A DNA stretch of 64,000 bases from Tubulanus polymorphus (lineage: Eukaryota; Animalia; Nemertea): NCBI RefSeq assembly GCF_964204645.1, contig NC_134026.1:18634150-18698149 (forward strand). Reading direction: 5' to 3'. Of the stretch, positions 2,071-61,427 are shown piece by piece (positions within the stretch are counted from its first letter, which is position 1; the number at the start of each line of letters is the position of its first letter). The translations under genes were made by a program, and so were the position numbers. Below the pieces are notes generated by a model that saw only the letters and a program-made list of their open reading frames with translations, was not told where the DNA came from and did not search any database.

Positions 2071-3995
2071 CAGAGGTGCCAACCCCCCCCCCCCAAAAAA
2101 AAATTTTTAAGTAGCACAAACCAAAATCTTAAGTGTTTTCGATGATTTTCCTGTACTTTCAAAATTTGTTAAATTTCCAAAAATTAGAACCTGTATTTTT
2201 CAAGGAAAATAAGTAAAAGCCCCACAAAACCCAGAAATCAATATTACATCTAGTAGTAAATTTACAAAGAAGCAAAACCTTTGATTTAAGTAAAATTAAT
2301 TGTATTTACTAAAAAAAACTAATACTGCTGTAATTGATTGTCATAAATAAATCACGTGGCTACACTGGCTATGCCCACATATCAAAACTGAGACTTTTGA
2401 TTTTGTGAAGAATATATCTGGATACACATGTTATACATAATTAACATCTATGAATACAGTACATTAACCATAGAAATACTGCTGGACAGAATGATTGTTA
2501 CACATTTCATATCACTCAAGCTTCGATCACATTCTGTTTTGTAATTGCAAAAATAACTTTTAACACAACACAACAGAAAAATACCACATAATTATCTACA
2601 ATGTGGAATAATGAAAAGTTAGTCCTGCTTTAATGATTTAGCAGTTGCTGATTTACACTTCTTAAGCAAATCATTGCTATGGTTATTTAGATGACAGGTT
2701 CCCCCTCTTGTTTTCAGGATCATCAGCGACTCAAGAACTTTAGGAGATAGGCTGCCCCGAAAGTCTGTTTTGTTTTTCCTTATGGTGCTGAATACACGCT
2801 CACACCCAGCGTTACTAACTGGAAATAGGAGAATAGTCATCATCATCCTTGGCAGGATCTTGAACCTATAAATAAAAAAGAGGGCATGTTGTAAGCACTT
2901 CCATTAAAGTGAAAATAATCTGCACTTGAAGGGTTCAAATTTCAATTTTTGTCTCTCAGGAAATTTCAGCATAGTTCAGAGTAAAGAGATGTTGACTGAT
3001 TTGGTAATTCTAGATCACTTGTAATTTCCTCACAGCTTCACCTCGTTTCGTAGACTTGCTGATGTACCAGTAAACTTTACGCAAAATATCATTAAAGTTG
3101 AATTCGTCACTCATTGATTTCAAACCTTTTGACACAGCTAGATCAAGAAGGTGGCAGATACAGCCGGCAAGGTGCACATTAGCATGTTTTTCACGAATGA
3201 ATTTGATAGTCCCTTTGTATTTACCAGTCATGACTGCACAATTGTCGGTAACAAAACTCAAAAACTGTGTCCATTGAATATCATTAACCTCTAGTTCTCG
3301 CTCAATTATTTCATAGATAGATTTTCCGGTATGTGAAGCATTCCATATAGGTAGAGACAACAGGCGGGTTTTGAAGGTCAAACTCTGTGGTTCGAGATAC
3401 TTAACTACAATTGGGTAGTATGTGTTATTCTGTAGAGCTGATCCATCTATTCCCAAAATGAACGGATTGGCTTTGATGACACTAATGCAGTTTGTTTTTT
3501 CAACATGAGCAAGTTCTTCAACAATGTATGTTGCCTTTGTTCGAGCACATTTAAATGATTTAGCAATTTCACTGTCAGGGAACATCTTACGGCAGAGTTC
3601 ACCCATGTGGTTTGCAGCACTCAGAGCAATGTTATGCTCAACCAGGAACTCACAAAATAGTGTTTCCACCCGGATTTCTTTAGAGTTCTCCTTTTTCACA
3701 AGAAACCTATCCATTGTCTTATTACTAGAAGTTTGAGCAGCGGCAGTTTTATGCTTTGCGCTGGCAAAATGTTGTTGAATGTCGTACTTTCCACTGTGTC
3801 CAACGGAAAAGTTTGATTGACATACCGTGCAATACGCATGATTGTTGCCGACGCGACTAGGCAGATTACACGGGTTGTTGGCCGTGTATTCTGCCTTGAA
3901 TTTTTGCAGCTTACATCGCCGTTTTTCCGGAGGGCCTTCATCGTCGGAAGACAACGATTCACTTTCGACGTACGCCGCCATTTTACATTTTTCAT
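2071..3995 (-). mobile_element. hAT-superfamily DNA transposon, copy A (3' TIR plus transposase remnant)
   Basis: TIR CAGAGGTGCCAACC at 2071-2084; its reverse complement is at 35247-35260. Transposase ORFs lie inside. Confidence 0.8.
2619..3981 (-). pseudogene. hAT transposase (BED-like zinc finger, catalytic core, C-terminal dimerisation motif); incomplete
   Basis: CTVC...H...H finger, ILGIDGS, VTDNCAVM and CICHLLDL (CxxH) in 3010-3981; PVSNAGCERVFS in 2619-2846. Confidence 0.85.
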
Positions 3996-8272: not shown

Positions 8273-8472
8273 ATTAAGATGAAAAAAAGGACAATATTTA
8301 AGAGATTTATATTATAACCCAGAAAGTGAAGTATCATATTCTAACGTTTCAGAATTATGGGGTAAAATTAAATCCGATGAAGAAAATATAAAATATAGTG
8401 AATTAAAATCATGGTTACAAAATCAACCAACATATCAAATCCACAAGAAAATGGATAAAACTTATTTAACAA

Positions 8473-8731
8473 TGATCTTACGATCCGATTGGTTCGTCTA
8501 TTAATCTAATAACACGACTATGCATTCTCAAGTATATATGGAATCTGCTTTATTTTAACTAAAAACTATATCTTATTTACCAGTGCGCATGCGTATCGGT
8601 AACATCTATATAGAGTATACGGTTCACTAACACTATCAAGGGTGACTGCAATTTAGTCTAAAGTTACAGGATGTGAACTGGTTTTGAACTGCTTTTTACT
8701 GTAATATGTTGTATTGTTTTTCGTCACATCA
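8473..8731 (-). repeat. BEL/Pao 3' LTR (259 bp); polypurine tract GAGGGGTGGTA adjacent on the minus strand
   Basis: Direct repeat of 15059-15325 with ~3 substitutions and one 8-bp indel, counted by eye. Confidence 0.95.
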
Positions 8732-9379
8732 TACCACCCCTCAAAAATGGGTTAAAGTTTTTTAATCACATTGTTCTATTTCAATCTTTTAATAAATTTG
8801 CACTTTCAAATTCTGATCAAAATTCAATTATTTCAGATTATGTTTATATCCAATATTTAAGATATCTTAATTGTTGTCTTCACTATAAATGTGTATATAC
8901 TGTATTTATTTAATGCTATTTAACCTAGATAATCTAAGTCTAATGAATTTCAAACTAGTCTATAGTAAACAATAGGAAACAATCACGATAGTCTGGTATT
9001 TTTCTAGTTTCATGAAGTTTATGAACATCGTCTTCTGGTGGGCTTACGGTTGTCGCTGCCTACTACAGATTAACAACAGGTGGACAGACCTGATGCTACT
9101 GCTCCATAGGGCTTACAACACTGTCTGCCACCCTCGTTTTCACGTCTTGGTACATGTTTACCTCGTCAATGGTACTTTAAACTTCTGGTTATCTTTGTGA
9201 TAAAATAATTCTACATCTACATATCTTCACCGTAACCCCGGCCAGGAGGCTTAGAGGCTGTTCATGAATGCTTAAATCATGACCTCGAGACTATGGACGG
9301 AAGAGGACGTCTTACTACCCCTTTCTTGAGCTGCAGTCTAATGACTGGTCTCAAGCCATACCGTATACCAATGCGTAAT

Positions 9380-12300
9380 CACTTTCGAACGAATTCTAAT
9401 GGACAAATGTTCTTCACATTCCTTCTGAACGATATTTCTCCGATTTTAACATCCACTACCCTGACCAATTTGTCTGAACCCGGGTAGGTCTCTTGGATGA
9501 CTCCTCAATCACCAATCACGTCTCGGTAGCGATGGATCAACCAATAGCACTACATCTCCAGCTTTCATATTAGCTCTTTCGTGACTCCACTTCTTTCTAT
9601 CCGCTAAACATTTTACGATTTCATCCAACCACTTAACCCAATATTGCTTGAGAAGGTCTTGGCAGAAACGCCATCTACTTCTGAGGGAAAATGGGGTGTA
9701 GTCCACGGAGTCTGGAGTTACCGGTCCCCCTAATCTTCCAATCATGAAATGATTAGGTGTCAGCATTGGCTCTTCGTTAACATTTGAACCTGGTGCTATG
9801 AGGGGTCTAGAGTTTAATAAGCTTTCTGCTCCCGTTATAACGGTCAGTAACTCTTCGTCTGTGACATCTGCCGTTCCTATCACTGCTTTGATAGCTCTCT
9901 TCGATGACCTGATCATTGTCTCGAATACCCCTCCGAAATGGGGTGCGGCTGGTGGATTGAACATCCATTTCACCCCTTTATTGGCCAGGTTAGCAGTTAT
10001 TCTTTCATTGTCTAACTCCTTAACTAGATTTTGTATTTCTTTGTCTCCCGACACAAACGAACTTCCGTTATCCGATACGCATAGTCTTGGCCAACCTCGA
10101 CGAGCTGCAAATCTGACAAACCCATTCAGAAATGAATCTGTGTCTAATCCGAACGTCATCTCTAAATGAACTGCCCGCACTTGAAGATCGACCAGTAACA
10201 GAAGATATCTCTTGTGTCGCGCCTTACCGCGTCCTTGCTTAGTGTAGAATGGGCCAGCAAAATCTAGACCACATTCTGAGAATACGTGATTCGAAGGATT
10301 TACTCGAAAACTTGGCAATGCTGCCATCTTTTGAAGTTTTCCACCTCATTTGATCCATCGGCGACAATAAGTACAAGCATTTATCATTTTGCGGACTTGT
10401 TCTCTTCCGTGAACTATCCAATACTTGTTTCTCAGACTATTCAGCGATTAAATCCCGAACCGTGGCCGCCGTCTTCATGTTCATTTCTAATGATAAGTTT
10501 CGTCACTGGGTGATTCTTTGGTAAAATTATAGGCATTCTCGTTTCGGCCGGTAGGTACTTCGCTTTTTGTAGCCTCGAATTTGATCTCAATAACCCTTCT
10601 TCATCTAGTATTGGATTAAGGGTTACTATCGTACTTTGTGTGCACACTGGTTTGCCACTGGATAGGCAGTTGATCTCGGTTGTGAAAACTTCTCGTTGAG
10701 CTATTCGGATGATGTGATTTTTTGCTGCTACGATTTCATTTGCTGTAAGTTGTAAATCCAGGCACCTATTGACCTTCTTCGTTCTACAATTTTCCACGAA
10801 CCTTTTCACCCACGCAAATATCCTAACGAACGCGAATCGACCTCCAGTTGACGTGTTTCTGTTAAAGATTGGCAGCCATGTAGACCATGATTCACTGTTT
10901 AATCTCCAGTTTTGTTTATCTTCAAAATCTGGGTCAGGTTGCCTTATAGGAAAGATACTGCTGTCTTTCAGTTTAGTTACTGGATCTGTCTGATGTATTG
11001 TGATATTTGTATGTAATAATTCGCTTTCTTTCCTGAGTTCTTTTGTCACTGCCTGCGTCAATCTGGACTCTGTTTTTGGCCAACTGTCTCTGCTCTCTCG
11101 CAGGAACTCTGGTCCTGTCCACCACATATCATTTGTGTTAAGTAGCTCGGTGACGGTCATGCCTCTGGTGACTTTGTCTGCGGGGTTCTTGTCTTTCGGT
11201 ACGTGATTCCACTGTGACGGAGACGAATGTTCATGTATATATCAGACTCTGTCGCTACAAAAGTCTTGAAATTTCGGCTTTGATTTCTAATCCAAAAAAT
11301 GACGTCCATTGAATCACTCCAGTACTCGATTTCACTGATTTGTAGATTTCGGTTTATTCGTTGAGTTAATTCTACCCCTATATACGCTGCCATCAGTTCT
11401 AACTCGGGGATGGATAAACTTTTCGTTGGTGCAACTCGAGATTTCGATGCAATTAACTGAGTGGATACCGTGCCATCTTCGTATATACACCTCATATACA
11501 CACAAGCTGCATAGGCTTTCACTGATGCATCAACAAATGTATGCAGTCTTTTCGAAGAAATAATTCCTCGATTTTTCAGACATCTGGGTATTCTAAGTTG
11601 CTGTATTTGCTTCAGGTCTTCAACCCAGCTAATCCATTTGTTTTTCAATTCATCCGGTAGACGTTGATCCCAGTCCAAACCTTGGATCCAGGTTTCTTGC
11701 ATCAGGATTTTTGCTACGATTATTTTGGGTTAAATCAATCCACGTGGGTCAAATACAGTGGATATGGCTTGCAACAATTCACGTTTGGTTGTCACCTCTC
11801 GGTTAGGCAAATTGTTGTCATATGTCAGAGTGTCTGATCGTGGTCTCCATTTCATGCCTAATATAGAATTGGAATCGGTCTTCTCTACTTGGATTTCTAC
11901 ATCACCATTGGCTCGATCTGCTATTTCAACTCCAATTAAGGCATCAGGTTCGTTTGAAATCCACTTTCTATAGTGGAAACCGCCGGTTTCACTCACGGTT
12001 GTCAACTGTTGTCTCAATTCTTGCGTTTCTTCAATACTGTCAACTGATGTTATTGTGTCGTCCATTTAGGTATTTTCTAGTATGGCTTTAGCTGCCAGAG
12101 GATGTTCATTCTGATTTTTTCTAGCATGATGTTGCAGCACAAATTGCGCACAGCAGGGCGAGTACGTGCTCCCAAACACCAGCCTCGTAAACTCATATAT
12201 TTTTCCCCATCTATCCAAAGAAATCTGTGGTATTGGCGCTCTTCTGGTTTCAGTTTGATTTGTAGATACATTTGCGTCAAGTCGGCTGCTCTTGCTACGG

Positions 12301-14755
12301 TTCCTTGTCTAAATTTGATCAGAATGTCGAAAAGTTCATTTTGCAGTTTCGGTCCAGCATGGGCTTCATCATCCTAGGATCTATTGTGATTCTTTGCGGA
12401 TGCATCGAAGACTATTATAACTTTGGTCGTTTGACGCTGAATTCGGACCACGGGAAAGTGGGGTAGAAACCACTGAGGTTTGATTTGTTCTTCAGTTGGT
12501 ACCTCCCGCACATATCCCTTTTCTTTGTACTCTTCGATAGTGCACATAGTGCGTATACAATTGTTTTAATTCTGGGTCACTGTCTAACTTTTTCTTCAAA
12601 GTGTTCAGTCGTCTTTCCGCTAATTGTCTGTTTTCACCTAAATTCGGGGTTTCTTTCCATGGAACGCCTGTTTCGTATCTTTCGCCATCATATTTTATTG
12701 ACTTATTAAGTTGACTTAGGACTTTCCTGTTCTCTGGGGAAATCCCTGTAGCACTGCTGTCACTGATCTTCTCTATCTCCCAGAAACGCTTCAACGCTGC
12801 ATCTAGGTCGGTTATTCCTGCATAGCTGTGTGAATACATAGTATTTACTGCAATTGGTTTCATTCCTGTTTTGATTGCCGACTCAGTGTAGTTATCTGAT
12901 AGACACGTCCAACCACATGGGTACAATCGTGCAACAGGGTCTCGTGGCTTTTGTCCCGTTACCTCTTCTATACAGGTCATCAGTTCCATGAAATTCTTTC
13001 CTAGCAGTCCTTCGATGGTTGGGTTACTGCCAAGATCCGGAAACGGGATATCTCTCAAATGAGGCCAATTTTTTGCAAACTTTTCCAGTTAATAACTGGC
13101 ATCTCACCGCAAACTTGATCTATCACGAAGAAAGTGCCTGCGGTTAATTGGTTTCCGTTGACGTGGAATATTTCGGCATGTGTTTTCATCACTGTAGAGC
13201 GAATTTCGGTTCCGTCCATTACTTTTACATTTATTTTCTCATTTTTTCCCTTGAGTCTCAATTCCTGTGCGACCGTTATGTTTATGTAGCTAACATCACT
13301 ACATTCATCGATTAACATGATGACTTTTCTCGAATTTCCGTTATTCTTTATGAGTACTGGCACGGCCCTCATACCTATCAGTACGGTGTCCTTGTTTCTG
13401 ACGGAGCAGTAAGAATTCGGTGAATTTTGAAAGGTTTCTGTAGGTAATTCGGGTTCTGACTTCTGAATGATATCCTTGTGCAACGATTTATGGTGGCTTC
13501 TTGGACAGTCGTTAATACCACATCTCCTGTGCGTTTTACAGTCTATACCTCTATGATTCGATTTCAGGCATCGAAAACACAGTCCATTTCGCTTAGCGGC
13601 AGTCCACCTATCGTCAATGTTCATTTTTTTCCAATCTCGACAATTCTCTATGTCATGCTTGTTTGTGGATTTACAAATTCTACATGTCTGTACACCTGGA
13701 TCGCGATGTGTGACGAACGTCCTTCGTCCACCTGTGGTCACAGTCTGTCTATCGTAACTGTTTTCCTTGAGTCCTCTAACTGTCTCTCTGGCTCTAGCTT
13801 GTCGTTTAACCACATGGGTAAGCCATATAGATAGTCCCTCAAGGCCCTCTGTTTCGAGTTCATTCTCTAGATGTTCGTAGTATTTTATAAGAAGGCTTTC
13901 TGGAACTTTCTTACATACAAGACGGTACCACGCCCCGTTCTGTAAATCTTCGATCCTGTTGCTGGCGCGTAATTTTGCCACCGCTATATTCAAGGCTTCG
14001 GACAATTTTGAGAGTCCGTCGATATTTCCTCCCTTAACTGGTTCTAATCTTTCAACTTCATCTAAATAATTTTGTAATTGGCGACATTTTCCGCCGTATT
14101 TGTTGCTCAAAATGTTTTTGGCCGCTTCGTATTCTGTTTCAGTATAGCCTAGGCCCTTAATGGAATCTTTCGCTTTACCTCGGGGACTGTTTATGAGGCG
14201 GATCATTTTTCCCGCCGGACTTTCGTCACTCTTATCAACGACCTCTATAAACGCCATCCAGTAAGTATCGAATTCCGTCTTATCCCCACTAAATTCAGGG
14301 ACTCTAATGCTTTCAAGTCGTCCAGTGGTGACCTGTCGTGTACCTCTGGCCGTCGAATCTGGAGGCGGTCTGGTCGGTCTATTAGCTTCTCCATTATGTC
14401 CTCTTGTGCTCAGTCTTCCTCGAATTGTGGCCATTTCGGTCTCAAACTCGTCGGTCATTGTCTCTCCTTCTAGGAGTGTTTTGTCGGCCTCTTTCTGTCG
14501 ATTATTTTCTAAATACAAATTTTCTAATGAATCTATTATACTAGAGACATTCATATATGATTGTTCAACCAAGGCGATATGTTGAAGTATTTCGTCGGTT
14601 ATGACGTTTTCATCATTTACCAATACAAACAGCGCATTGCGCTGCATTGATAATTTACATTTTTCCGTCTTTTTTAATCTCCGTAACTCCTTTTCATGGT
14701 CAATGGAATGCGGAGTCTGCTCTATATCGTCGTTTTCCATGTTTGGAGTCGACAT
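9380..14755 (-). pseudogene. BEL/Pao gag-pol polyprotein, fragmented
   Basis: Gag with three Cys-His knuckles (13055-14755); RT pieces (MYLQI, MDD); Pao RNase H (HTFVDAS..AY, SIPELEL); integrase (GLDFAGP, SDNGSSF, PHFGGVFE). Confidence 0.92.
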
Positions 14756-15037
14756 CTTTTCTTTTTGATCTATGTATTCGATATTCTATATTTCTATTTC
14801 AATCATTCGGACATTCGAATATTTAATGACTGACCTGTTGTTGCGGAATACATGTATATCCATTTGTAACTGTGCTTCTTTTCCTATGAATCTGTTAATT
14901 CCGAATAATCCTCTTTTTCAGTTCTGTATTTCCGTTGACTCTATTCCGGTTCACCGATTTCGAATATAAATCAGCGTTTCTATTCTGATTTGCAGATTTC
15001 GAATATAAATCTGCGCGTATCTATTAATTTCTATCTT

Positions 15038-15055
15038 TCCCGGGTTTCGGCACCA
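15038..15055 (-). promoter_or_regulatory. Primer-binding site complementary to the tRNA-Phe 3' end
   Basis: Minus strand TGGTGCCGAAACCCGGGA, 3 nt inside the 5' LTR; matches the animal tRNA-Phe(GAA) 3' end ...TCCCGGGTTTCGGCA-CCA as recalled. Confidence 0.85.
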
Positions 15056-15058
15056 TTA

Positions 15059-15325
15059 TGATCTTACGATCCGATTGGTTCGTCTATTAATCTAATAACA
15101 CGACTATGCATTCTCAAGTATATATGGAATCTGCTTTATTTTAACTAAAAACTATATCTTATTTACCAGTGCGCATGCGTATGGGTAACATCCATATAGA
15201 GTATACGGTTCACTAACACTATCAAGGGTGACTGCAATTTAGTGTAAAGTTACAGGATGTGAACTGGTTTTGAACTGCTTTTTACTGTAATATGTTGTAT
15301 TGTTTTATTGTTTATCGTCACATCA
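15059..15325 (-). repeat. BEL/Pao 5' LTR (267 bp)
   Basis: Direct repeat of 8473-8731, adjacent to the PBS. Confidence 0.95.
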
Positions 15326-16139
15326 AACAAGAAAAGTAATGGTTTCATATATCGATCAACAATGGCAAGCTGATTTAATTGACATGAAGAACTTAGAAGA
15401 ATACAACAAAGGATATTTCTGGATACTGAATGTTATAGACATATTCAGTAGATACGCATGGTCAATTCCAATCAAAAATAAAACTGGAATAGAAGTGACA
15501 AATGCTTTTAAATCTATATTTAAAGAAGCTATTCCAGATAAGATACAATTTGATGAAGGTAAAGAATTTTATAACAAACATTTTAAAAAACTATTATCTG
15601 ATAACGATGTAGAGTATTTTTCAACACATTCAGATGAAAAAGCATCTATTATAGAAAGATTTAATAAAACATTGAAAACTAGAATGTGGAAATATTTAAC
15701 TGCTAATGAAACATATAAATATATCGATGTGTTAGATGATTTAGTGAAAGGTTATAATAATTCTAAACATAGTTCTATAAATATGAAACCTATACAAGCT
15801 AGAAAAGAAGATAATTCAGAAATAGTTTGGAATAATTTATATGGGGCGTTTGTTACACATGATTTCGGCGAACCTAGATTTAAAATAGGACAACATGTAA
15901 GAATATCTAAATATAGAAAAACATTTTATAAAGGTTATACTCCAAATTTTACTGAAGAAATATTTAAAATTAAAAAGATAATATTAACCAAATCATTTGT
16001 TCATAAATTAGAAGATCTAAAAGATGAAGAAATATTAGGTTATTTCTATGAACAAGAATTATCACTTGTACCAAACCCAGATGAAATAGAATACAAAATA
16101 GAAAAAGTATTAAAAACAAAAACTCTTAAAGGAAAAAAG

Positions 16140-34379: not shown

Positions 34380-35260
34380 GTATGTGTTATTCTGTAGAGC
34401 TGATCCATCTATTCCCAAAATGAACGGGTTGGCATTGATGACACTAATGCAGTTTGTTTTTTCAACATGAGCAAGTTCTTCAACAATGCATGTTGCCTTG
34501 TTGAAGCGTTGTTCGAGCACATTTAAATGATTAAGCAATTTCACTGTCAGGGAATATCTTACGGCAGAGTTCACCCATGTGGTTTGCAGCACTCAGAGCA
34601 ATGTTATGCTCAACCAGGAACTCACAAAATAGTGTTTCCGCCCGGATTTCTTATTAGTCCTCCTTTTTCACAAGAAACCTATCCATTGTCTTATTACTAG
34701 AAGTCTGAGTAGCGGCAGTTTTATGCTTTGCGCTGGCAAAATGTTGTTGAATGTCGTACTTTCCACTTTGTCCAACGGAAAAGTTTGATTGACATACCGT
34801 GCAAGACGCATGATTGTTGCCGACGCGACTAGGCAGAATACACGGGTTGTTGGCCGTGTATTCTGCCTTGAATTTTTGCAGCTTACATCGCCGTTTTTCC
34901 GGAGGGCCTTCATCGTCGGAAGAAAACGATTCACTTTCGACGTACGCCGCCATTAAACATTTTTCATAGGTGGCGCTAGCCAACGGACAGCGTCTTCCAT
35001 CGTTACCGCAGCGGGTTCTGAGCGGCAATGCACGAGGTCATCACACTGACATTACGCAACTAACTTCAAGCACGTTCATATCAAACAATAACACGTTTAT
35101 TTTTCAAAAAATGACACTTATTTATTTTACGTAACATAATTTTTTCCCTCCCGTATTTTAACTTTTAAAAAAACGTAAAATTTTCAGAAAAACGTACTCC
35201 CGTAAATTGAGGTTCGTTTCCGTAGCAATTACGGAAAATACGTACAGGTTGGCACCTCTG
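34380..35260 (-). mobile_element. hAT transposon, same family as copy A: 5' TIR plus transposase N-terminus (copy B)
   Basis: 34380-34968 is a close direct repeat of 3418-3995. TIR GGTTGGCACCTCTG at 35247-35260, with subterminal CCGTA/TACGG repeats. Confidence 0.85.
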
Positions 35261-47205: not shown

Positions 47206-47211
47206 AATAAG

Positions 47212-48300
47212 ATGAAAAAAGAACAATATTTAAGAGATTTATATTATAACCCAGAAAGTGAAGTATCATATTCTAACGTTTCAGAATTATGGGATAAAAT
47301 TAAATCTGATAATGAAAATATAAAATATAGTGAATTAAAATCATGGTTACAAAACCAACCAACATATCAAATCCATAAGAAAATGGATAAAACTTATTTA
47401 ACAAGAAAAGTTATGGTTTCATATATCGATCAACAATGGCAAGCAGATTTAATTGATATGAAGAACTTAGAGGAATACAACAAAGGATATTTCTGGATAT
47501 TAAATGTTATAGATATATTCAGTAGATACGCATGGTCAATTCCAATCAAAAATTAAACTGGAATAGAAGTAACAAATGCTTTTAAATCAATATTTAAAGA
47601 AGCTATTCCAGATAAGATACAATTTGATGAAGGTAAGGATTTTTATAATAAACATTTTTAAAAACTATTATCTGATAACGATGTAGATTATTTTTCAACA
47701 CACTCAGATAAAAAAGCATCTATTATAGAAAGATTTAATAAAACATTGAAAATTAAAATGTGGAAATATTTTACTGCTAATGAAACATATAAATATATCG
47801 ATGAGTCTATAAATATGTTAGATGATTTAGTGAAAGGTTATAATAATTCTAAACATAGTTCTATAAATATGAAACCTATACAAGCTAGAAAAGAAGATAA
47901 TTCAGAAATAGTTTGGAATAATTTATATGGTGCGTTTGTTACATATGATTTTGGTGAACCTAAATTAAAAATAGGACAACACGTTAGAATATCTAAATAT
48001 AGAAAAACATTTTATAAAGGTTATACCCCTAATTTTACTGAAGAAATATTCAAGATTAAAAAGATAATATTAACTAAACCTTTTGTTTATAAACTAGAAG
48101 ATCTAAAAGATGAAGAAATATTAGGTTATTTCTATGAACAAGAATTATCACTTGCCCCAAATCCAGATGAAACAGAATACAAAATAGAAAAAGTATTGAA
48201 AACAAAAACTCTTAAAGGAAAAAAGTATTCTTTGGTGAAATATAAAGGGTATGATGATAAATTTAATGAATGGATTTATCTAGTAAAATTAAAAGAATAA
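47212..48300 (+). pseudogene. P2 DDE integrase + chromodomain; stop at 47554-47556 and a frameshift near 47660
   Basis: WQADLIDM; C-terminal YKIEKVL..LVKYKGY..KFNEWI chromodomain. Confidence 0.9.
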
Positions 48301-48912
48301 ATGAATAAAGATTTATTTATATTTGAACCGCATAATATGTTAGTTACTGGAGTAACCAATTGTGGTAAAACACATTTCATATTAGATTTGTTAGAAACTA
48401 TATATAAGAATCATTTTGATTATATAATATTATTTTGTCCTACTTATGAAATGAATAAAACATATAATAGAGATATAGTTAAGATGAAAAAGTTTATTAC
48501 ATTAAATCCTAAAACAGTAAAAGAAAATTTAGATAATTGTATTAAAATAGCAATTGATACTTATAAAGGATTAAATACATTATTCATTACAGATGATTGC
48601 GCAAATTTACATGATTCAAAAGTGAGAGAAAGTGAGTTATGTTATCTGGCTTTCTCTGGGAGACATTTTGGGATAACAACATGGGTTTTAAATCAAAAAT
48701 ATAATTCAATTGTTAAAGACTTTAGGGAGAATATAAGATTTCTAGTTTTATTTTATAACAAAGATAGAAAATCTATGCAACAATCATTGGAAGAAAATCA
48801 AATTATACCTACTGAGTTACATGATGAATATATGAATAAATCAAAGAATAATAAAGGTTCAAAATTATTACTGAGGCTTCAATTTCCATATGAATATAAA
48901 TTTATAAAATAA
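48301..48912 (+). CDS. A32/FtsK-like DNA packaging ATPase (intact)
   Basis: Walker A GVTNCGKT, Walker B FITDD, GRHFG..Q. Confidence 0.9.
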   Translation: MNKDLFIFEPHNMLVTGVTNCGKTHFILDLLETIYKNHFDYIILFCPTYEMNKTYNRDIVKMKKFITLNPKTVKENLDNCIKIAIDTYKGLNTLFITDDCANLHDSKVRESELCYLAFSGRHFGITTWVLNQKYNSIVKDFRENIRFLVLFYNKDRKSMQQSLEENQIIPTELHDEYMNKSKNNKGSKLLLRLQFPYEYKFIK

Positions 48913-49307: not shown

Positions 49308-50222
49308 TTATTTGAGATAAAAATCACTATCTGAATCACTTTCATAAGGCCCTAACAATTTATTCAAATGCTCTACCGAATCTTCTTCTTCAAATTCTTC
49401 ATTATAATCCTTTTTCATCCTATTTACCGAATCATCAATAGTTACTACTTTATCTTTCGTAAAAAATGTATCCACATTTTCTTTATTATCAATACGCTTT
49501 CCTGTAACTATATTTTCATATAGAGTGTTTGCTCCTAATATTTCATTTACAATGTTTGATCCTAATATTTTTTTAGCAGCAGATAAATCTAATTTACCAT
49601 TACTAGGTTCCTTAGATAAAAATTCACCTAATAAATCTTCATATAATTCTTTACCATTTACTTTTTTATTTGAAACAAACTTTGTAACATATTTAAATGG
49701 GTGTTCTATAAATTCCCTTATACCAACACGTTTTATTACATTAGTCATATGTACATTTGTATTCATATGATTATTCCAATTTGATGGAAAGTTTGAAAAT
49801 TCACCATTACAGTAATCACAATAATTTCTATTTTCACTAATATTTAATATTATTTCATTATTTGATGTAGAAGGTAAAACATTATTTGATGTAGAAGGTA
49901 TTACATTATTTGATGTAGAAGGTATGACATTATTTGATGTAGAAGGTATTACATTATTAGATGTAGAAGGTATTACATTATTAGATGTAGAAGGTAAAAC
50001 ATTATTTGATGTAGAAGGAATATTATCTATAATATCATTAATATTATCTTTTTTATTTATATCATTATAACGCTCAATTAAATATTCTTTGTATTGATTT
50101 AATTCATTTAATAAAAATGTTCCAATATATTCATTTATTCTTTTATAAGGTATTACATAATATAAATTATCATTGATTTCTTTATCAGCTTTTATTCTTT
50201 CATATACTTTACCTCCTTCCAT
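49308..50222 (-). CDS. P2 variable-slot protein with 7 x 8-aa PSTSNNV(I/L) repeats and one C2H2 finger
   Basis: Intact ORF; 24-bp tandem repeat at ~49858-50020; CDYC..H.NTNVH finger. Confidence 0.8.
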   Translation of the reverse strand: MEGGKVYERIKADKEINDNLYYVIPYKRINEYIGTFLLNELNQYKEYLIERYNDINKKDNINDIIDNIPSTSNNVLPSTSNNVIPSTSNNVIPSTSNNVIPSTSNNVIPSTSNNVLPSTSNNEIILNISENRNYCDYCNGEFSNFPSNWNNHMNTNVHMTNVIKRVGIREFIEHPFKYVTKFVSNKKVNGKELYEDLLGEFLSKEPSNGKLDLSAAKKILGSNIVNEILGANTLYENIVTGKRIDNKENVDTFFTKDKVVTIDDSVNRMKKDYNEEFEEEDSVEHLNKLLGPYESDSDSDFYLK

Positions 50223-50254: not shown

Positions 50255-51505
50255 TTAATACATAACACTATTTAATTGAGAATTTACAATATTTAATTGT
50301 GCGTCAGATATAATATAAATATGCATTTTGAAATTTTTGTCTCCTCTTTTCTTTGTCATGAATAATTGTATTCCATCTTTAGTGTTCTGTAGTTTTTTTC
50401 CAGAACCATGCAATGAATAATCCTCTGTTGTTCTAAAATCTAACCATAATGCATATTTATTACCGGTATAATAATCAATTTGATTAATATTACAATTTTC
50501 AGATGATTTCACTTTTTCATTCATAAAATGTTTTCTAATTTCTGGCCATTGATCTATCATTCTCATTCCTTGACAAAATATTTTATTTGCTATTCCTTCG
50601 ATAGTTATTTCTACTTTTGTTATTTCAGGATTATAATAATTATCAACATTTATTGCGCCATTAGAATATGTTGCAATGGTAAAAAATATTAATATACCTT
50701 TAATAGATCTTCTTGGGAAGTTAATATTCTCATTAATAATTTCATCATTTGCATTAATAGTTACAGTTTTAAATTTATCAATATAATCATATAATAATGA
50801 AAATCCTTGATTGTATTGAGTTTGAATTATACTTGAAATATTTTCATCAGTTACTGTATCATATTCTAAACATATATTCGATAATTTATAACCCATATCT
50901 TTAACAACGCTAGAGTATACAATTTCATTTGCAGGAGCAAATGTTATTTCTAATATAACATCTTCTTGAATTGCGTATTTATATAAAGGTGCATTATTAT
51001 TTATCAATTCAAAGTCTAATGGAATTTTATATTTGCTTCCATATATACTTTTTATCAATTTATCTACAGCATAAGTTAATATTGCATTATGTGCTTCTGA
51101 TCTTAATTTATTTTGGTTTTCTGATTGGATTCCTTGAAATATCATATTATTTCTATTTTCTTTAGTTAACCATAAATCTTTATAATGCATAAATAAATTA
51201 TAATCATCTAATGAGAAAACTGTTTCTGGTCCAATCTTTATAGTTAATTTTTTAATCAAATATCTTCCAACATTATCGACAACATAATTATTATTATTAT
51301 TACCAGTTACTTTTATATTAGCTGATAAATAAATACTATTTGGAACATAAAAAGTATTTTGTGTTAACCGAGGGATTCTAACATATAAAGTTTCATCGGG
51401 ATTAATATGAGAAGGGTTATGAGTAATTATATGATGTGATCTTTCTGCTTTAATAGCATTAGATATTCTAGAATTCTGAGAAGGATTTATGTAACTCCCA
51501 CTCAT
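50255..51505 (-). CDS. Putative major capsid protein (double jelly-roll), intact, 416 aa
   Basis: Size, beta-strand pattern, very high conservation between P1 and P2, and co-occurrence with ATPase and penton. Fold not computed. Confidence 0.78.
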   Translation of the reverse strand: MSGSYINPSQNSRISNAIKAERSHHIITHNPSHINPDETLYVRIPRLTQNTFYVPNSIYLSANIKVTGNNNNNYVVDNVGRYLIKKLTIKIGPETVFSLDDYNLFMHYKDLWLTKENRNNMIFQGIQSENQNKLRSEAHNAILTYAVDKLIKSIYGSKYKIPLDFELINNNAPLYKYAIQEDVILEITFAPANEIVYSSVVKDMGYKLSNICLEYDTVTDENISSIIQTQYNQGFSLLYDYIDKFKTVTINANDEIINENINFPRRSIKGILIFFTIATYSNGAINVDNYYNPEITKVEITIEGIANKIFCQGMRMIDQWPEIRKHFMNEKVKSSENCNINQIDYYTGNKYALWLDFRTTEDYSLHGSGKKLQNTKDGIQLFMTKKRGDKNFKMHIYIISDAQLNIVNSQLNSVMY

Positions 51506-56710: not shown

Positions 56711-57064
56711 TTATTCGAAATCTATTTCATGGTGCCCTTTTTCATTCTTACCCTTATATACGAAATAGAAATCACCTGAACATAATTCTTCTAGATGTTC
56801 ACTTGATAATCTATGAAATCTATCTGGTAAATATGTTCTGAATTTATTTGTATTTTCTTTTAATCCTTCATATTCTAAGTGAATAACTAATTTATCTCCA
56901 TATTTGTTAGTAACTGTAACAATATCTGTAATTAGATATTTCTTATGGATTGTTAATTCTTTTAACTTCTTAAATTTATAATCTACTGATTTGACATTTG
57001 AAGTATCTTTTATTCTATCTAGAAATAATTTGTTGTTCTCACTGTGTGCTTGTTTACTCTCCAT
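56711..57064 (-). CDS. Small protein downstream of PolB, possible OB-fold ssDNA-binding protein
   Basis: Intact 117-aa ORF with TNKYG..LVIHL and YLPDRF; function inferred from beta pattern and position. Confidence 0.55.
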   Translation of the reverse strand: MESKQAHSENNKLFLDRIKDTSNVKSVDYKFKKLKELTIHKKYLITDIVTVTNKYGDKLVIHLEYEGLKENTNKFRTYLPDRFHRLSSEHLEELCSGDFYFVYKGKNEKGHHEIDFE

Positions 57065-58343
57065 TTTAATAACATATTTTTATTAAAATTTGATTAACAC
57101 GTTAGAATTCTTTTCATTATCTCGTTCTCTTTTGTTTCTTCTCTTTTAAATTTTAAGTATTCATCTAAATTGCAACCATATGCAACTGTATGAATTCCAT
57201 CATCTAAAATATATCTTTTATCATCAAATGGGTTTAGACTTATCTTTTCAATTTCTTCAATAAACATTTCATGATCTTCAGATCTTAAACATTTCATCTT
57301 ATGTTTTCTAACTTCTTCATTGAATATACAATTGATGTAATCTTTGAAATGAATATTCTTTTCTACTACACTTTTGGTAATTCCTTTTAACTTTTTAGCT
57401 TCATGTTCTTTAGTTTTATATGAATACATTTTAGATCTAATACCAATGAATTCAATCATTTCTTCACCACCTAATTCATCCTTAAACTTCCCGGGTCGCT
57501 TTTTATTATCATTGCTAAACAATTCATGATTTTTAGGATAGTTACTAAAATCAAAATGATGTTTTAATGTTTTTAAATCATCAGTTATGTTATTAGTTTT
57601 TATCTTAAATATGTAACTGTCAGTATTTTTTATGATTGATGGAAATCCACGATTAAATGTACCATCTTCAGTTGTTAAATCATAAACATATTCTGTAGGA
57701 TTCGATATTTCAAATAAATCTCTAGCTTCTTTAGTTAGTTCATTTTCTACATGCGTTAATTGCTTAAATTTATAATCTACTGATTTGACATTTGAAGTAT
57801 CTTTTATTCTATCTAGAAATAATTTGTTGTTCTCACTGTGTGCTTGTTTACTCTCCATTTTAATAACATATTTTTATTAAAATTTGATTAACACGTTAGA
57901 ATTCTTTTCATTATCTCGTTCTCTTTTGTTTCTTCTCTTTTAAATTTTAAGTATTCATCTAAATTGCAACCATATGCAACTGTATGAATTCCATCATCTA
58001 AAATATATCTTTTATCATCAAATGGGTTTAGACTTATCTTTTCAATTTCTTCAATAAACATTTCATGATCTTCAGGTCGCTTTTTATTATCATTGCTAAA
58101 CAATTCATGATTTTTAGGATAGTTACTAAAATCAAAATGATGTTTTAATGTTTTTAAATCATCAGTTATGTTATTAGTTTTTATCTTAAATATGTAACTG
58201 TCAGTATTTTTTATGATTGATGGAAATCCACGATTAAATGTACCATCTTCAGTTGTTAAATCATAAACATATTCTGTAGGATTCGATATTTCAAATAAAT
58301 CTCTAGCTTCTTTAGTTAGTTCATTTTCTACATGCGTTAATTG
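56969..58343. repeat. Tandem duplication: unit 1 56969-57762 (794 bp), unit 2 57763-58343 (581 bp, in-frame 213-bp deletion)
   Basis: Junction ATGCGTTAATTG|CTTAAATTTATAATC at 57762/57763. Unit 2 lacks 71 PolB codons (GKFKDE...KCLRS). Confidence 0.92.
57094..57858 (-). CDS. Chimeric ORF: 32-aa leader from the neighbouring gene + intein C-terminal ~46 aa + complete PolB C-extein
   Basis: MESKQ...DYKFK|QLTHVEN...YVYDLTTEDGTF...IIKN|TDSY...; open and in frame. Confidence 0.75.
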   Translation of the reverse strand: MESKQAHSENNKLFLDRIKDTSNVKSVDYKFKQLTHVENELTKEARDLFEISNPTEYVYDLTTEDGTFNRGFPSIIKNTDSYIFKIKTNNITDDLKTLKHHFDFSNYPKNHELFSNDNKKRPGKFKDELGGEEMIEFIGIRSKMYSYKTKEHEAKKLKGITKSVVEKNIHFKDYINCIFNEEVRKHKMKCLRSEDHEMFIEEIEKISLNPFDDKRYILDDGIHTVAYGCNLDEYLKFKREETKENEIMKRILTC

Positions 58344-61184
58344 AAATACATTTAGTTTATCTTTTCTAATATTAACTAACATATTAAATCCTAATGAATT
58401 GCATAATGTATTTAATCCTGATATAGCAACTTTTCCTTTTTGTGTCAAAGATATAGTTTTCTGTTTTGTATAGTTTTTTGAACCATCTGCAGCATAAAAT
58501 CCAATGAAGAACCATTTTCTTAAATCATATTTTGCATTTAATACATAATCTGGAACTATCTTTTCTTTTGTTGAAGTATTACTTTTCACTATTGTATGAA
58601 TATAGAATTCATCATTATATTTAATTGCAAAATCTTTAGGGTTAATTACATGTATTCTATAAACTGCTGATGATTTCATAACATCCATGATTCTAAATGT
58701 TTTATGTGAATAAACTTCTTCACAGTATTTCTTAATTCTTTCTAATAATTTCAAATCTTGATTGCATAAATACCAACAATATTTAGTTCCACTAACATAT
58801 TTATACACACCTGCTGAACCATCACCCATAAAAAATCCTTTGATAAAATATTCTTTTTCTTCCAATGTTTCGGATTCTATATTATAAACATTATCAATTA
58901 TTTTATCAAATGACATATGATTCATTCTTGGGTAAAATCTTTTATGTAATAATTCATCTCCAATTTTTATATCAGTTGGTTTTATTTCATCACCATTTTG
59001 TTTAATTAAACTATGATCTTCAGTAACATCAACAAATCCTAATTTAGTTCTAACTCTATAGATTTTCTTATTCGTTTTATGTCTAATTATATTCTTTAAT
59101 TTTTTCCATCCACTTTTTGTCCAAACATCCATTAATCCATTTATTTGTATTAATTCTTTTTCACCATACGAAATATAAAGTTCATTTTGTTTTGGAATTA
59201 TTTCTGAAATTCTTCTAATTAACATTTAGTTATTGTATTTTAAAAATATTGGTCAGCTGTAACAGAATCAAAATATAAGATTTCTATATGTTTTTCTCCA
59301 AAATGAGGTTTTAATACATTATAATAGAATTCATACATTAATAACTTTGATATTTCTAAAACTGAAGCACCAACATAAATTGGTTTATTAAATTTCATTG
59401 ATGTTCTTCTCATTTTAACTGCGGCTAAATTTTCATCAAATATTCTGTTACCTAAAAACTTAGGATATGATTGTCAATGCCTTATCCTTTTGCCATTACT
59501 TACTAACTCAATATCATTTCTATTTCTAATATTTTCACTAGTCTTACCATAGAATGCATTATTCATTAACTTGAAGAAATCTTTCTCGAAATCAGGGTTA
59601 GCTTCAGTTCTATGTTTGTGTTAAAATCTATATATTTTTCTAACCATTTAGATTGACTAAATGAAATATATCTATGTACTTTTTTTAGAACCATTCCTTG
59701 GTTCAAATAAAACTTCAACATTCTATAATGTACTAACATAATTATATTTATCTTCCTGAGTTACCATTAACTTTTCTGTATGAATATGATTTTCGGGTTT
59801 AATTCTTTTTTGATAATTTGATAATTCTTCATGTGTTACAGTTTTATGTTCGGGACAGTATGCTAGATTTCTAGATTTAAATTTAATATGTTCAGGATAT
59901 TCTAAATCTACAACAAAGAAGTAACCAGTATCTGAATCATCTGCAATATCTAGGATTCTTTTCTTCCAATCAAATTTATCATTATTTTCATGTTGTAAAA
60001 CTTCACTTATTTCAAATACTCCATAAGGTTGTGGTTCCATCATTGCCCAACGATACAAATTATTTGCATCTATATATAATAACTTATATCCAGGGTTATC
60101 ATTTACATTGAAATATCTATCACCTAATACACCTGAAACTCCTCCTCTTATAGATTTTTCAAATAATAATAATTGATCTATATTTGTTAACAAATCCATT
60201 TTTATATCTGTAAATTTTAAACCACAATCCCATGTTAATCCTGGGCTAGAATAACAATGACAAGGATCAATATTGAAATATTTTAGGTTTACATCTCTAA
60301 ACCTTTCGAATATATCCGATAATAATAATACATCTGATTTTAAATATAAATCTACTAATTGTCCATGATTTTTCATTCCAAAATGATTCCAAATATTCAA
60401 TGTTCTATTATATACTTCATCTTTAACATATTCATTTTTTAATTCATCATAGAATTGTTCTTTCAATAATTCAGTTATATTGAAATCATTATGATTTTTA
60501 TAGAAAGAATATGGAATTGCACCTTTATATCTCATTAATTGGAATTCATCATTATTTGTGTAGTATTGTTTTAATATTCTTAATTCATCATCAACTAATG
60601 ATTTTGATAAGTTATCTAATGAACTATTTAAAAATCCATATGAATCTATAAATCTTAGGCAACCAAATTGGAATGATATATAATTCTCAGATGTTCTAGC
60701 TAACATTTTAAATTTATAAGTTGGTATTTTATCTTTTGATCTATTTGAATTTAATCTTTCTATTTCATTATTAATTTCTTCTATTTTATGGCATAACTGT
60801 TTGGATAAATAAATGTGCATCATATCCTGATAGATTATGAAATATAACTGGTACAAAGTTAATTTTCTTAGCTTGTAAATTCAATTCTCATGTGCAGCGC
60901 CTCTAAACTTTCCGTTCAAATGATCATGGTCTCTTACTTTTTTATCTTTATAATTAAATATCTTTTCACAATAATAACATTTATCTGCAAACTCAAATGC
61001 TTCTTTATCTTCTTCTGTCATTATAATTTCTATATTTTCATTTAACTTTTCATTAAATTTTATTTCATATTCAATTAATAAGTCACAAAAATGATTGATA
61101 ACATTTTCATTTCTATAATGATAATATTCACTTTTAATTAGTTCTGGATAATCAGATTTAATATATAATCCAAAAGCTGCAGCT
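57888..61184 (-). pseudogene. P2 protein-primed PolB with intein; 5' ~1.6 kb of coding sequence deleted, frameshifted
   Basis: ORFs 60881-61189, 59723-60856 and 57888-59225 are colinear with P1 PolB apart from the intein insert. Confidence 0.93.
58206..59266 (-). mobile_element. Intein with LAGLIDADG (DOD) homing endonuclease in PolB motif C (YFD^TDS)
   Basis: 1061-bp insert absent from P1. Starts SVTAD; block B VTEDH; blocks C/E GFFMGDGS and GFYAADGS; block F YVYDLTT; ends IIKN followed by Thr+1. Confidence 0.95.
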
Positions 61185-61427
61185 ATCAATTTATATGTTA
61201 TTCATATATATTTTATCCATGTATATGAATATTTTAAGAGTAATAGGGGTAATGGGCTTTCAGGTCAAAGGTTGAGGGGGCGAGTGAGTAAAAAATGAAA
61301 ATAACAATAATTTACAGTTGAATTAGGAGTGTGCGCGACTAATTCAACTGTAAATTATTGTTATTTTCATTTTTTTACGAGCTCGACCCTTCGACCTTTG
61401 GCCTGAAAGCCCATTACCCCTATTACT
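61183..61427 (-). repeat. P2 right TIR (inner part deleted); 61239-61427 is a 189-bp imperfect palindrome
   Basis: Reverse complement of 44910-~45155; joined to PolB sequence through a 2-bp CT microhomology at 61183-61184. Confidence 0.9.

Follow-up and report, generated by a model that had tools for sequence, protein, structure and literature searches.

How does an intein come to lie in the catalytic motif of a transposon's DNA polymerase, and can it still splice and spread from there? This question is raised by a 64,000-nucleotide stretch of contig NC_134026.1 (hereafter the window), which contains two Polintons, P1 and P2. In P2, motif C of the gene for the protein-primed DNA polymerase (pPolB) is interrupted by a 1061-bp insert (59266-58206, minus strand). 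The motif is empty in P1, where it reads ILYFD-TDSY; in P2, ILYFD is followed by Ser1 and the rest of the insert, ending in IIKN, and then by TDSY. The insert is an intein that combines a Hint domain with a LAGLIDADG endonuclease, for which splicing and cutting are predicted from the sequence and a structural model. We consider it quite probable that it is a broken copy from a clade of motif-C pPolB inteins, whose intact members likely self-splice and spread by cutting empty copies.

An intein in motif C of the P2 polymerase

The boundaries of the insert follow from comparison of the two Polintons, whose pPolB regions are 95-96% identical outside it. The empty site of P1 lies between 25629 and 25628, and the P1 sequence there is identical to the P2 flanks over 44 nt on the N side and 17 nt on the C side. 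The GC (guanine plus cytosine) content of the insert is 24%, the same as that of the flanking pPolB gene. A first-pass annotation of the window had described an exact 1061-bp insertion at ILYFD/TDSY, and the comparison confirms its coordinates; all of the motifs that it named were found as well. On the minus strand, the codon for Ser1, the N-terminal nucleophile (59264..59266), adjoins ILYFD. Block B (TEDH, 59013..59024) has its T, D, and H kept in 99-100% of 82 relatives. The two LAGLIDADG motifs are GFFMGDG (58818..58844) and GFYAADG (58482..58508; Pfam PF14528, E=2e-8). Blocks F and G occupy 58206..58268, with block F, including its Asp, at 58268-58248 and a Lys-Asn end, and the Thr+1 codon (58205-58203) comes directly after the terminal Asn. 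All of the class 1 splicing residues listed in the available text of PMC7765530 are present: Ser1, block B Thr/His, block F Asp, terminal Asn, and Thr+1. The usual but non-obligatory penultimate His is replaced by Lys, both here and in the mimivirus intein. The annotation called this ending unusual, but among 83 inteins of the family the penultimate residue is Lys in 42, His in 36, and Ser in 5.

The intein gene (58206..59266, minus strand; Hint splicing domain and two-motif LAGLIDADG endonuclease by Pfam, P1/P2 comparison, and model) is broken in its 5' part (59226..59255). The register is lost near 59250 and a stop follows at 59226-59228, downstream of which a frame of 340 codons (59225-58206) is open, much as the annotation had it (frameshift near 59251, same stop, remainder open). 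The insert length is not a multiple of 3, and the copy is not in frame with the host gene. Only four of the 83 positions that are invariant in five other pPolB inteins are altered in the P2 intein, which suggests that its decay is recent.

Domain searches and structure prediction agree on what the insert encodes. In a Pfam scan of the 340-codon frame, which starts without the first intein codons, LAGLIDADG_3 (E=2e-8) and Hom_end (E=5e-5) both scored above their cut-offs, while Intein_splicing (E=7e-5) stayed under its cut-off for the P2 frame and passed in the homolog P0019. An AlphaFold2 model built on the same unbroken frame has a score of 91.7 for the predicted local distance difference test (pLDDT), and its top PDB matches are all endonuclease-inteins (Foldseek E 4e-16). 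It aligns with PI-PkoII over 294 residues (Z 25.1, root-mean-square deviation [rmsd] 4.3). Its splicing part matches mini-inteins (Z 14-15.7, rmsd 2.2-2.5, 133-135 aligned), and residues 119-303 match I-DmoI (Z 12.2, rmsd 2.8, 159 aligned). Both LAGLIDADG motifs carry their acidic catalytic residues within this modeled endonuclease fold. A spliceosomal or self-splicing RNA intron is ruled out by 340 open codons with a Hint fold, and a Hedgehog or bacterial intein-like (BIL) Hint domain by the endonuclease and the precise empty alleles.

Related inteins in other Polinton-type polymerases

Three protein searches yielded 17 further 90%-identity clusters with a related intein at the same pPolB site (P0001 and P0004 are placed by intein similarity and short flanks only). 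The nearest relatives of the P2 intein are among these Polinton-type pPolB inteins, at 64-76% identity. Of the full-length relatives, P0018 comes closest, with identities of 64% (intein) and 52-69% (exteins). Inteins are in frame in P0018, P0020, P0294, P0315, P0316, and the P0314 cluster, and intact full-length precursors do exist: P0018 (1693 aa), P0020 (1603 aa), P0315, and P0316. In the P0314 cluster (136 members), seven of the 15 listed copies are full-length and filled and have both endonuclease motifs. Both motifs are also kept across lineages that are only ~45% identical. The seven P0314 copies sit on contigs of 0.09-1.0 Mb, and two more clusters hold 121 and 55 members; the abundance of near-identical copies and the length of their contigs hint at eukaryotic chromosomes. 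The P2 copy is a fossil of an intein family that looks alive.

An Atlas search with the intein returned viral LAGLIDADG clusters. The intein is absent from three pPolB relatives in IMG/VR, in two of which the empty motif could be read, and a single-protein scan of viral contigs gave no match. Two profile scans, with 80 loci listed from each, gave at least 137 full inteins; among those listed, none has pPolB-type flanks and all are of giant-virus type.

Inteins of the same family also occur at two unrelated sites, one in a type II topoisomerase with several inteins (P0025) and one in an ADP-ribosylglycohydrolase (P0339, 41% identical to the window intein). These sites suggest non-allelic spread of the family.

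Relationship to giant-virus inteins

The first-pass annotation had likened the insert to the mimivirus PolB intein, and the likeness is real: the latter (P0338, 351 aa) is 42% identical over 316 aa, and the motifs that the annotation listed are common to both. Outside pPolB, the best relatives among the matches listed are of giant-virus type (up to 46% identical), many of them on contigs of giant-virus metagenome-assembled genomes (GVMAGs), and a C-terminal G-x-x-L signature is shared with at least 10 GVMAG contigs. Prokaryote genomes reach at most 37% identity (21 loci) and phages 28% (2 records), and the top fold matches of the model in BFVD are giant-virus polymerases. The nearest relatives are thus pPolB inteins and, beyond them, giant-virus-type rather than prokaryote or phage inteins.

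The exteins tell a different story from the inteins, an incongruence that the annotation had proposed as a check. Giant-virus PolB exteins have no significant similarity to the window pPolB, though the inteins are 37-46% identical. Likewise, P0020 belongs to a different pPolB group, whose exteins lack significant similarity to the window pPolB, and its intein is 42-46% identical. Similar inteins in dissimilar exteins indicate at least two moves of the intein from one polymerase family to another. These comparisons support a transfer between polymerases of giant viruses and Polintons. In 16 loci, the giant-virus flanks agree with the empty site of P1 at 10-14 of 18 nt, and this site would be a plausible cross-target. 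Within the main pPolB group, intein and extein identities move in step (about 45/48, 65/72, and 76/80%), which points to an old invasion of that group. Because the nearest relatives of the P2 intein are other pPolB inteins, it belongs to an old, widespread clade; the transfer envisaged by the annotation stands, while a single jump into the P2 element does not.

Phylogenetic trees were built from subsets of the available inteins (85, 55, and 68), with non-sister rows picked at random and with partial and long-branch rows removed from the two smaller sets. In these trees and a further one, the pPolB inteins come together as a single clade of the giant-virus PolB motif-C intein family (Shimodaira-Hasegawa-like approximate likelihood-ratio test [SH-aLRT] 99 in the further tree; support 100/100, 100/99, and 100/100 in the 85-, 55-, and 68-intein trees), and they group with giant-virus inteins against archaeal inteins (100/99-100, 55- and 68-intein trees). 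A giant-virus sister group is recovered in two trees (96/96 with 85 inteins, 81/99 with 55), and these two favour a transfer from giant virus to Polinton. Two results weigh against a firm direction: the sister group is not resolved in the 68-intein tree, the base of which lacks resolution, and a position of the pPolB inteins as sister to all others is not rejected (approximately unbiased [AU] test, p=0.26), so the direction that the annotation had assumed is not secured. The transfer could then have been reversed or have had a third donor, with pPolB inteins sister to giant-virus PolB inteins or derived from a cellular polymerase, and the PolBs of two archaeal metagenome-assembled genomes (MAGs) also fall inside the family. 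We regard this alternative as unlikely, given that giant-virus-type inteins, including those with the G-x-x-L signature, are the closest listed outside pPolB, that prokaryotes and phages are more distant, and that the best BFVD folds are giant-virus polymerases.

The two archaeal inteins (L161:3001-3954 and L164:3001-3879, one from a Promethearchaeota contig) lie within the giant-virus intein family and away from other archaeal inteins, which could reflect transfer or binning.

Filled and empty alleles

Filled and empty alleles occur side by side in four settings. The first is the window, with P2 filled and P1 empty with an intact site 32 kb away. The second is X5, a set of raw genomic reads from organism A in another study, in which depth over the intein core is 0.49 of that over the flanks (about half filled). 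There, 128 reads skip exactly 58206-59266 (1061 bases), and 81 further empty-site reads have different letters right at the target. Since only 204 of 6038 X5 reads are at least 99% alike, organism A may be a relative rather than the same organism. The third setting is the P0022 cluster (five filled and one empty among 15 listed) and the fourth the P0314 cluster (seven filled, six empty, and two uninformative among 15 listed). In the P0022 cluster, P0297 (empty) and P0294 (filled) have exteins that are 99.6-100% identical, so that the intein alone is the difference. This coexistence, read from sequence, suggests spread by cutting of empty copies.

In the P0314 cluster, the exteins of filled and empty copies are 98.5% alike upstream and 86.6% alike around the site, and 10 of the 12 fixed differences between them fall at -7 to +43. 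All filled copies read YMD/TDS at the site, and the empties read YTD/CDS, YFD/TDA, or YGD/TDA. The 20 residues around the site contain 11 variable columns (1.9 expected), the top window in 1191 residues, and the empties alone have six (1.5 expected). Such clustering is compatible with foreign flanks having been co-converted, with empty copies having survived through resistance, or with both.

Several points weigh against spread by homing. The P2 copy is dead and cannot work. P1 has not been invaded, intact though its empty site is, and P0297, like P1, is empty although its site is unchanged. The p-values for variable columns treat related copies as independent, and among the P0314 empties a region near -400 is equally variable. 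Lastly, a tree of 13 P0314-cluster copies away from the site has no resolution, and the AU test leaves a single filled clade standing (p=0.55); a lone invasion with later amplification would therefore fit too. From these points one could argue that the intein splices and has lost homing, that filled and empty copies are two Polinton lineages, and that divergence at the site reflects ordinary recombination or one old invasion with amplification. P1 still empty beside P2 and the agreement of intein with extein identity in the main pPolB group would be expected under such a scenario. We nonetheless judge it quite improbable, because both endonuclease motifs are retained across distant lineages, the only difference between P0297 and P0294 is the intein, the variation peaks exactly on the catalytic motif, and P0020 requires a jump.

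A proposed model for splicing, homing, and origin

In intact members, splicing would proceed by an acyl shift at Ser1, attack by Thr+1, and cyclisation of Asn, as in known intein chemistry, and would restore the catalytic DTDS motif; with this motif rebuilt, a filled element could still replicate. The endonuclease would cut motif C in other Polinton copies where it is empty, and the intein together with its flanks would be copied in during repair. As P1 keeps its intact empty site so close to P2, homing would most likely take place during Polinton co-replication. Surviving empty alleles would likely be enriched for altered target sites.

The clade may have originated when a giant-virus PolB endonuclease hit a similar pPolB site in a co-infected cell. 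After that, it would have diverged in parallel with one pPolB group, made at least one jump to another (P0020), and reached host chromosomes via the Polinton integrase. The available part of one preprint describes Polinton-like viruses packaged with entomopoxviruses, so co-infection does occur in animals. It is tempting to picture animal chromosomes with dozens to hundreds of live, giant-virus-derived intein copies in Polintons, locked in an arms race in which the catalytic motif diversifies to escape, but we offer this picture only tentatively.

The two Polintons and their genomic setting

Genes for pPolB, integrase, and A32 ATPase were found in the Polintons by Pfam; a maturation protease was not identified among the scanned open reading frames (ORFs) of the window. 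P2 (44910..61427) is bounded by terminal inverted repeats and a 6-bp target duplication, ATGGTC. It encodes an integrase (47206-48300; weak rve match, gene split), an A32 ATPase (48301-48912; PF04665, E=8e-13), and a probable capsid (50255-51505; Capsid_N E=0.005, below cut-off), for which a search for relatives found none. The N-extein of its pPolB (59267..61184, minus strand; PF03175, E=1e-9) is 95.8% identical to P1 25625-27546, and is 5'-truncated and broken: quite apart from the intein, the polymerase is dead, as ~1.6 kb is missing from its 5' part and the gene is broken at further points. P1 (5127..29708) likewise has terminal inverted repeats, with the target duplication GACAAC. Its integrase gene (rve, E=1e-9) is split by a BEL/Pao retrotransposon at about 8470-15330 (ORFs 9509-14785; PF05380, E=8e-43).

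Downstream of the intein, P2 is rearranged. The first C-extein copy (57891..58205, minus strand) has an in-frame 213-bp internal deletion near 58075, and after it the last 46 intein codons recur (57762-57625) together with a complete C-extein, the two spanning 57097..57762 (minus strand). The rearranged region (56962-58343) contains two repeated blocks, of 269 bp (57494-57762, 100% identical to 58075-58343) and 323 bp (99%). A microhomology-driven origin of the local duplication was rejected, the junction homologies being imperfect. X5 reads give the canonical order, with loose ends at 58075-58081, so the rearrangement is either private to this copy or an assembly error. Through it, a small downstream ORF has become fused to the intein tail and C-extein (ORF 57094-57873).

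Several other features of the Polintons were observed. An HNH-like ORF lies near the left end of both (P2 45319-46011, P1 5589-6089), and the pPolB contains a weak endonuclease VII-like insert (60881-61201). Beside the P2 capsid lies a variable accessory gene, an ORF that includes about 7 tandem copies of an eight-residue repeat (49827-50045; 24-nt unit) and is mostly unlike the P1 ORF at the same place. A DNA-transposon fragment lies upstream of each Polinton (3537-3836 and 34509-34808; 96% identical, spacing ~31 kb). The different target duplications argue that P1 and P2 inserted independently.

We identified no host gene in the window, and the animal setting proposed by the annotation comes from its mobile elements instead. 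The flanks and P1 carry BEL/Pao, long interspersed nuclear element (LINE), and Mutator-like elements. The nearest Atlas clusters of the BEL/Pao Gag are 100% eukaryotic, with Arthropoda, Nematoda, or Cnidaria commonest. To our knowledge, BEL/Pao elements are essentially restricted to animals; we found no paper on their range, and the Gag result is the sole support for it here. Based on the flanking BEL/Pao and LINE elements, the host is very probably an animal. A non-animal host or chimeric contig, with the intein that of a protist or algal endogenous virus, would have a precedent in viral-like DNA polymerases on Klebsormidium, Tetrabaena, and labyrinthulomycete nuclear scaffolds (PMC10710043, available text) and would suit both the lack of a host gene and a local duplication made in assembly, but is highly unlikely given the exact 6-bp target duplications of both Polintons, the LINE, Mutator-like, and BEL/Pao elements in the flanks, the eukaryotic Gag relatives, and an intein abundant in raw genomic reads of another study, which is therefore not an assembly product.

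Comparison with known systems

By mechanism, the P2 intein belongs to a known class; what is new is the kind of host gene and, probably, the kind of host genome. In the open-access papers searched (which leave supplements, subscription papers, and Repbase outside), we found no report that a Polinton or any protein-primed PolB carries a Hint-domain intein; the annotation had allowed for such a prior report. Here and below, we refer to the available portions of the cited sources. According to surveys (PMC5784728, PMC7765530), the eukaryotic inteins are those of fungi, algae, some protists, and giant viruses, a range that would change if a true intein is present at high copy in animal chromosomes. 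If our reading is true, a homing endonuclease can also cross from RNA-primed giant-virus to protein-primed Polinton polymerases, leaving a molecular trace of cells shared by Polintons and giant viruses. Since one genome contains both filled and empty copies, the copies themselves allow homing, co-conversion, and resistance to be followed directly.

Among structural relatives, the archaeal PI-PkoII, TliVMA, and PI-PfuI and the yeast PI-SceI match the fold over its whole length (Z 15-25), but they are only 16-22% identical and reside at single loci of cellular hosts, in contrast to the multicopy mobile element here. Polinton pPolBs with HNH and VSR inserts (PMC10748475) similarly have nuclease domains inside the polymerase; those are domains fused elsewhere, whereas P2 has a complete Hint domain that splits the catalytic motif. 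The words intein and LAGLIDADG do not occur in the available text of that paper. Citing it, PMC11071308 suggested that the nuclease inserts of polinton pPolBs stem from intein invasions, and the P2 intein provides a test of this guess. Yeast WHO elements (bioRxiv 10.64898/2026.08.13.744650) resemble our case in LAGLIDADG homing with target-site diversification, but they are not inteins, and cleavage and selection were shown there, compared with a sequence signal only for the Polinton inteins. The nearest precedent is the inteins of Klebsormidium, Tetrabaena, and a labyrinthulomycete (PMC10710043), which likewise entered a nuclear genome within a viral polymerase; they differ in their algal or protist hosts, and section 8 of that paper includes neither Polintons nor a filled/empty multicopy family. 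The closest match in the intein itself is with the PolB motif-C inteins of Nucleocytoviricota, among them that of mimivirus, described in PMC549080, where an intein in an insect iridovirus is noted as well. The PolB motif-C inteins share the YxD/TDS site, a length of ~350 aa, and Ser1, Asn, and Thr+1, and the mimivirus intein also shares the two LAGLIDADG motifs and the Lys-Asn end. The P2 intein stands apart from that of mimivirus in its host, an integrating Polinton's protein-primed PolB, in whose exteins no similarity is detectable, and in its place in a clade of its own.

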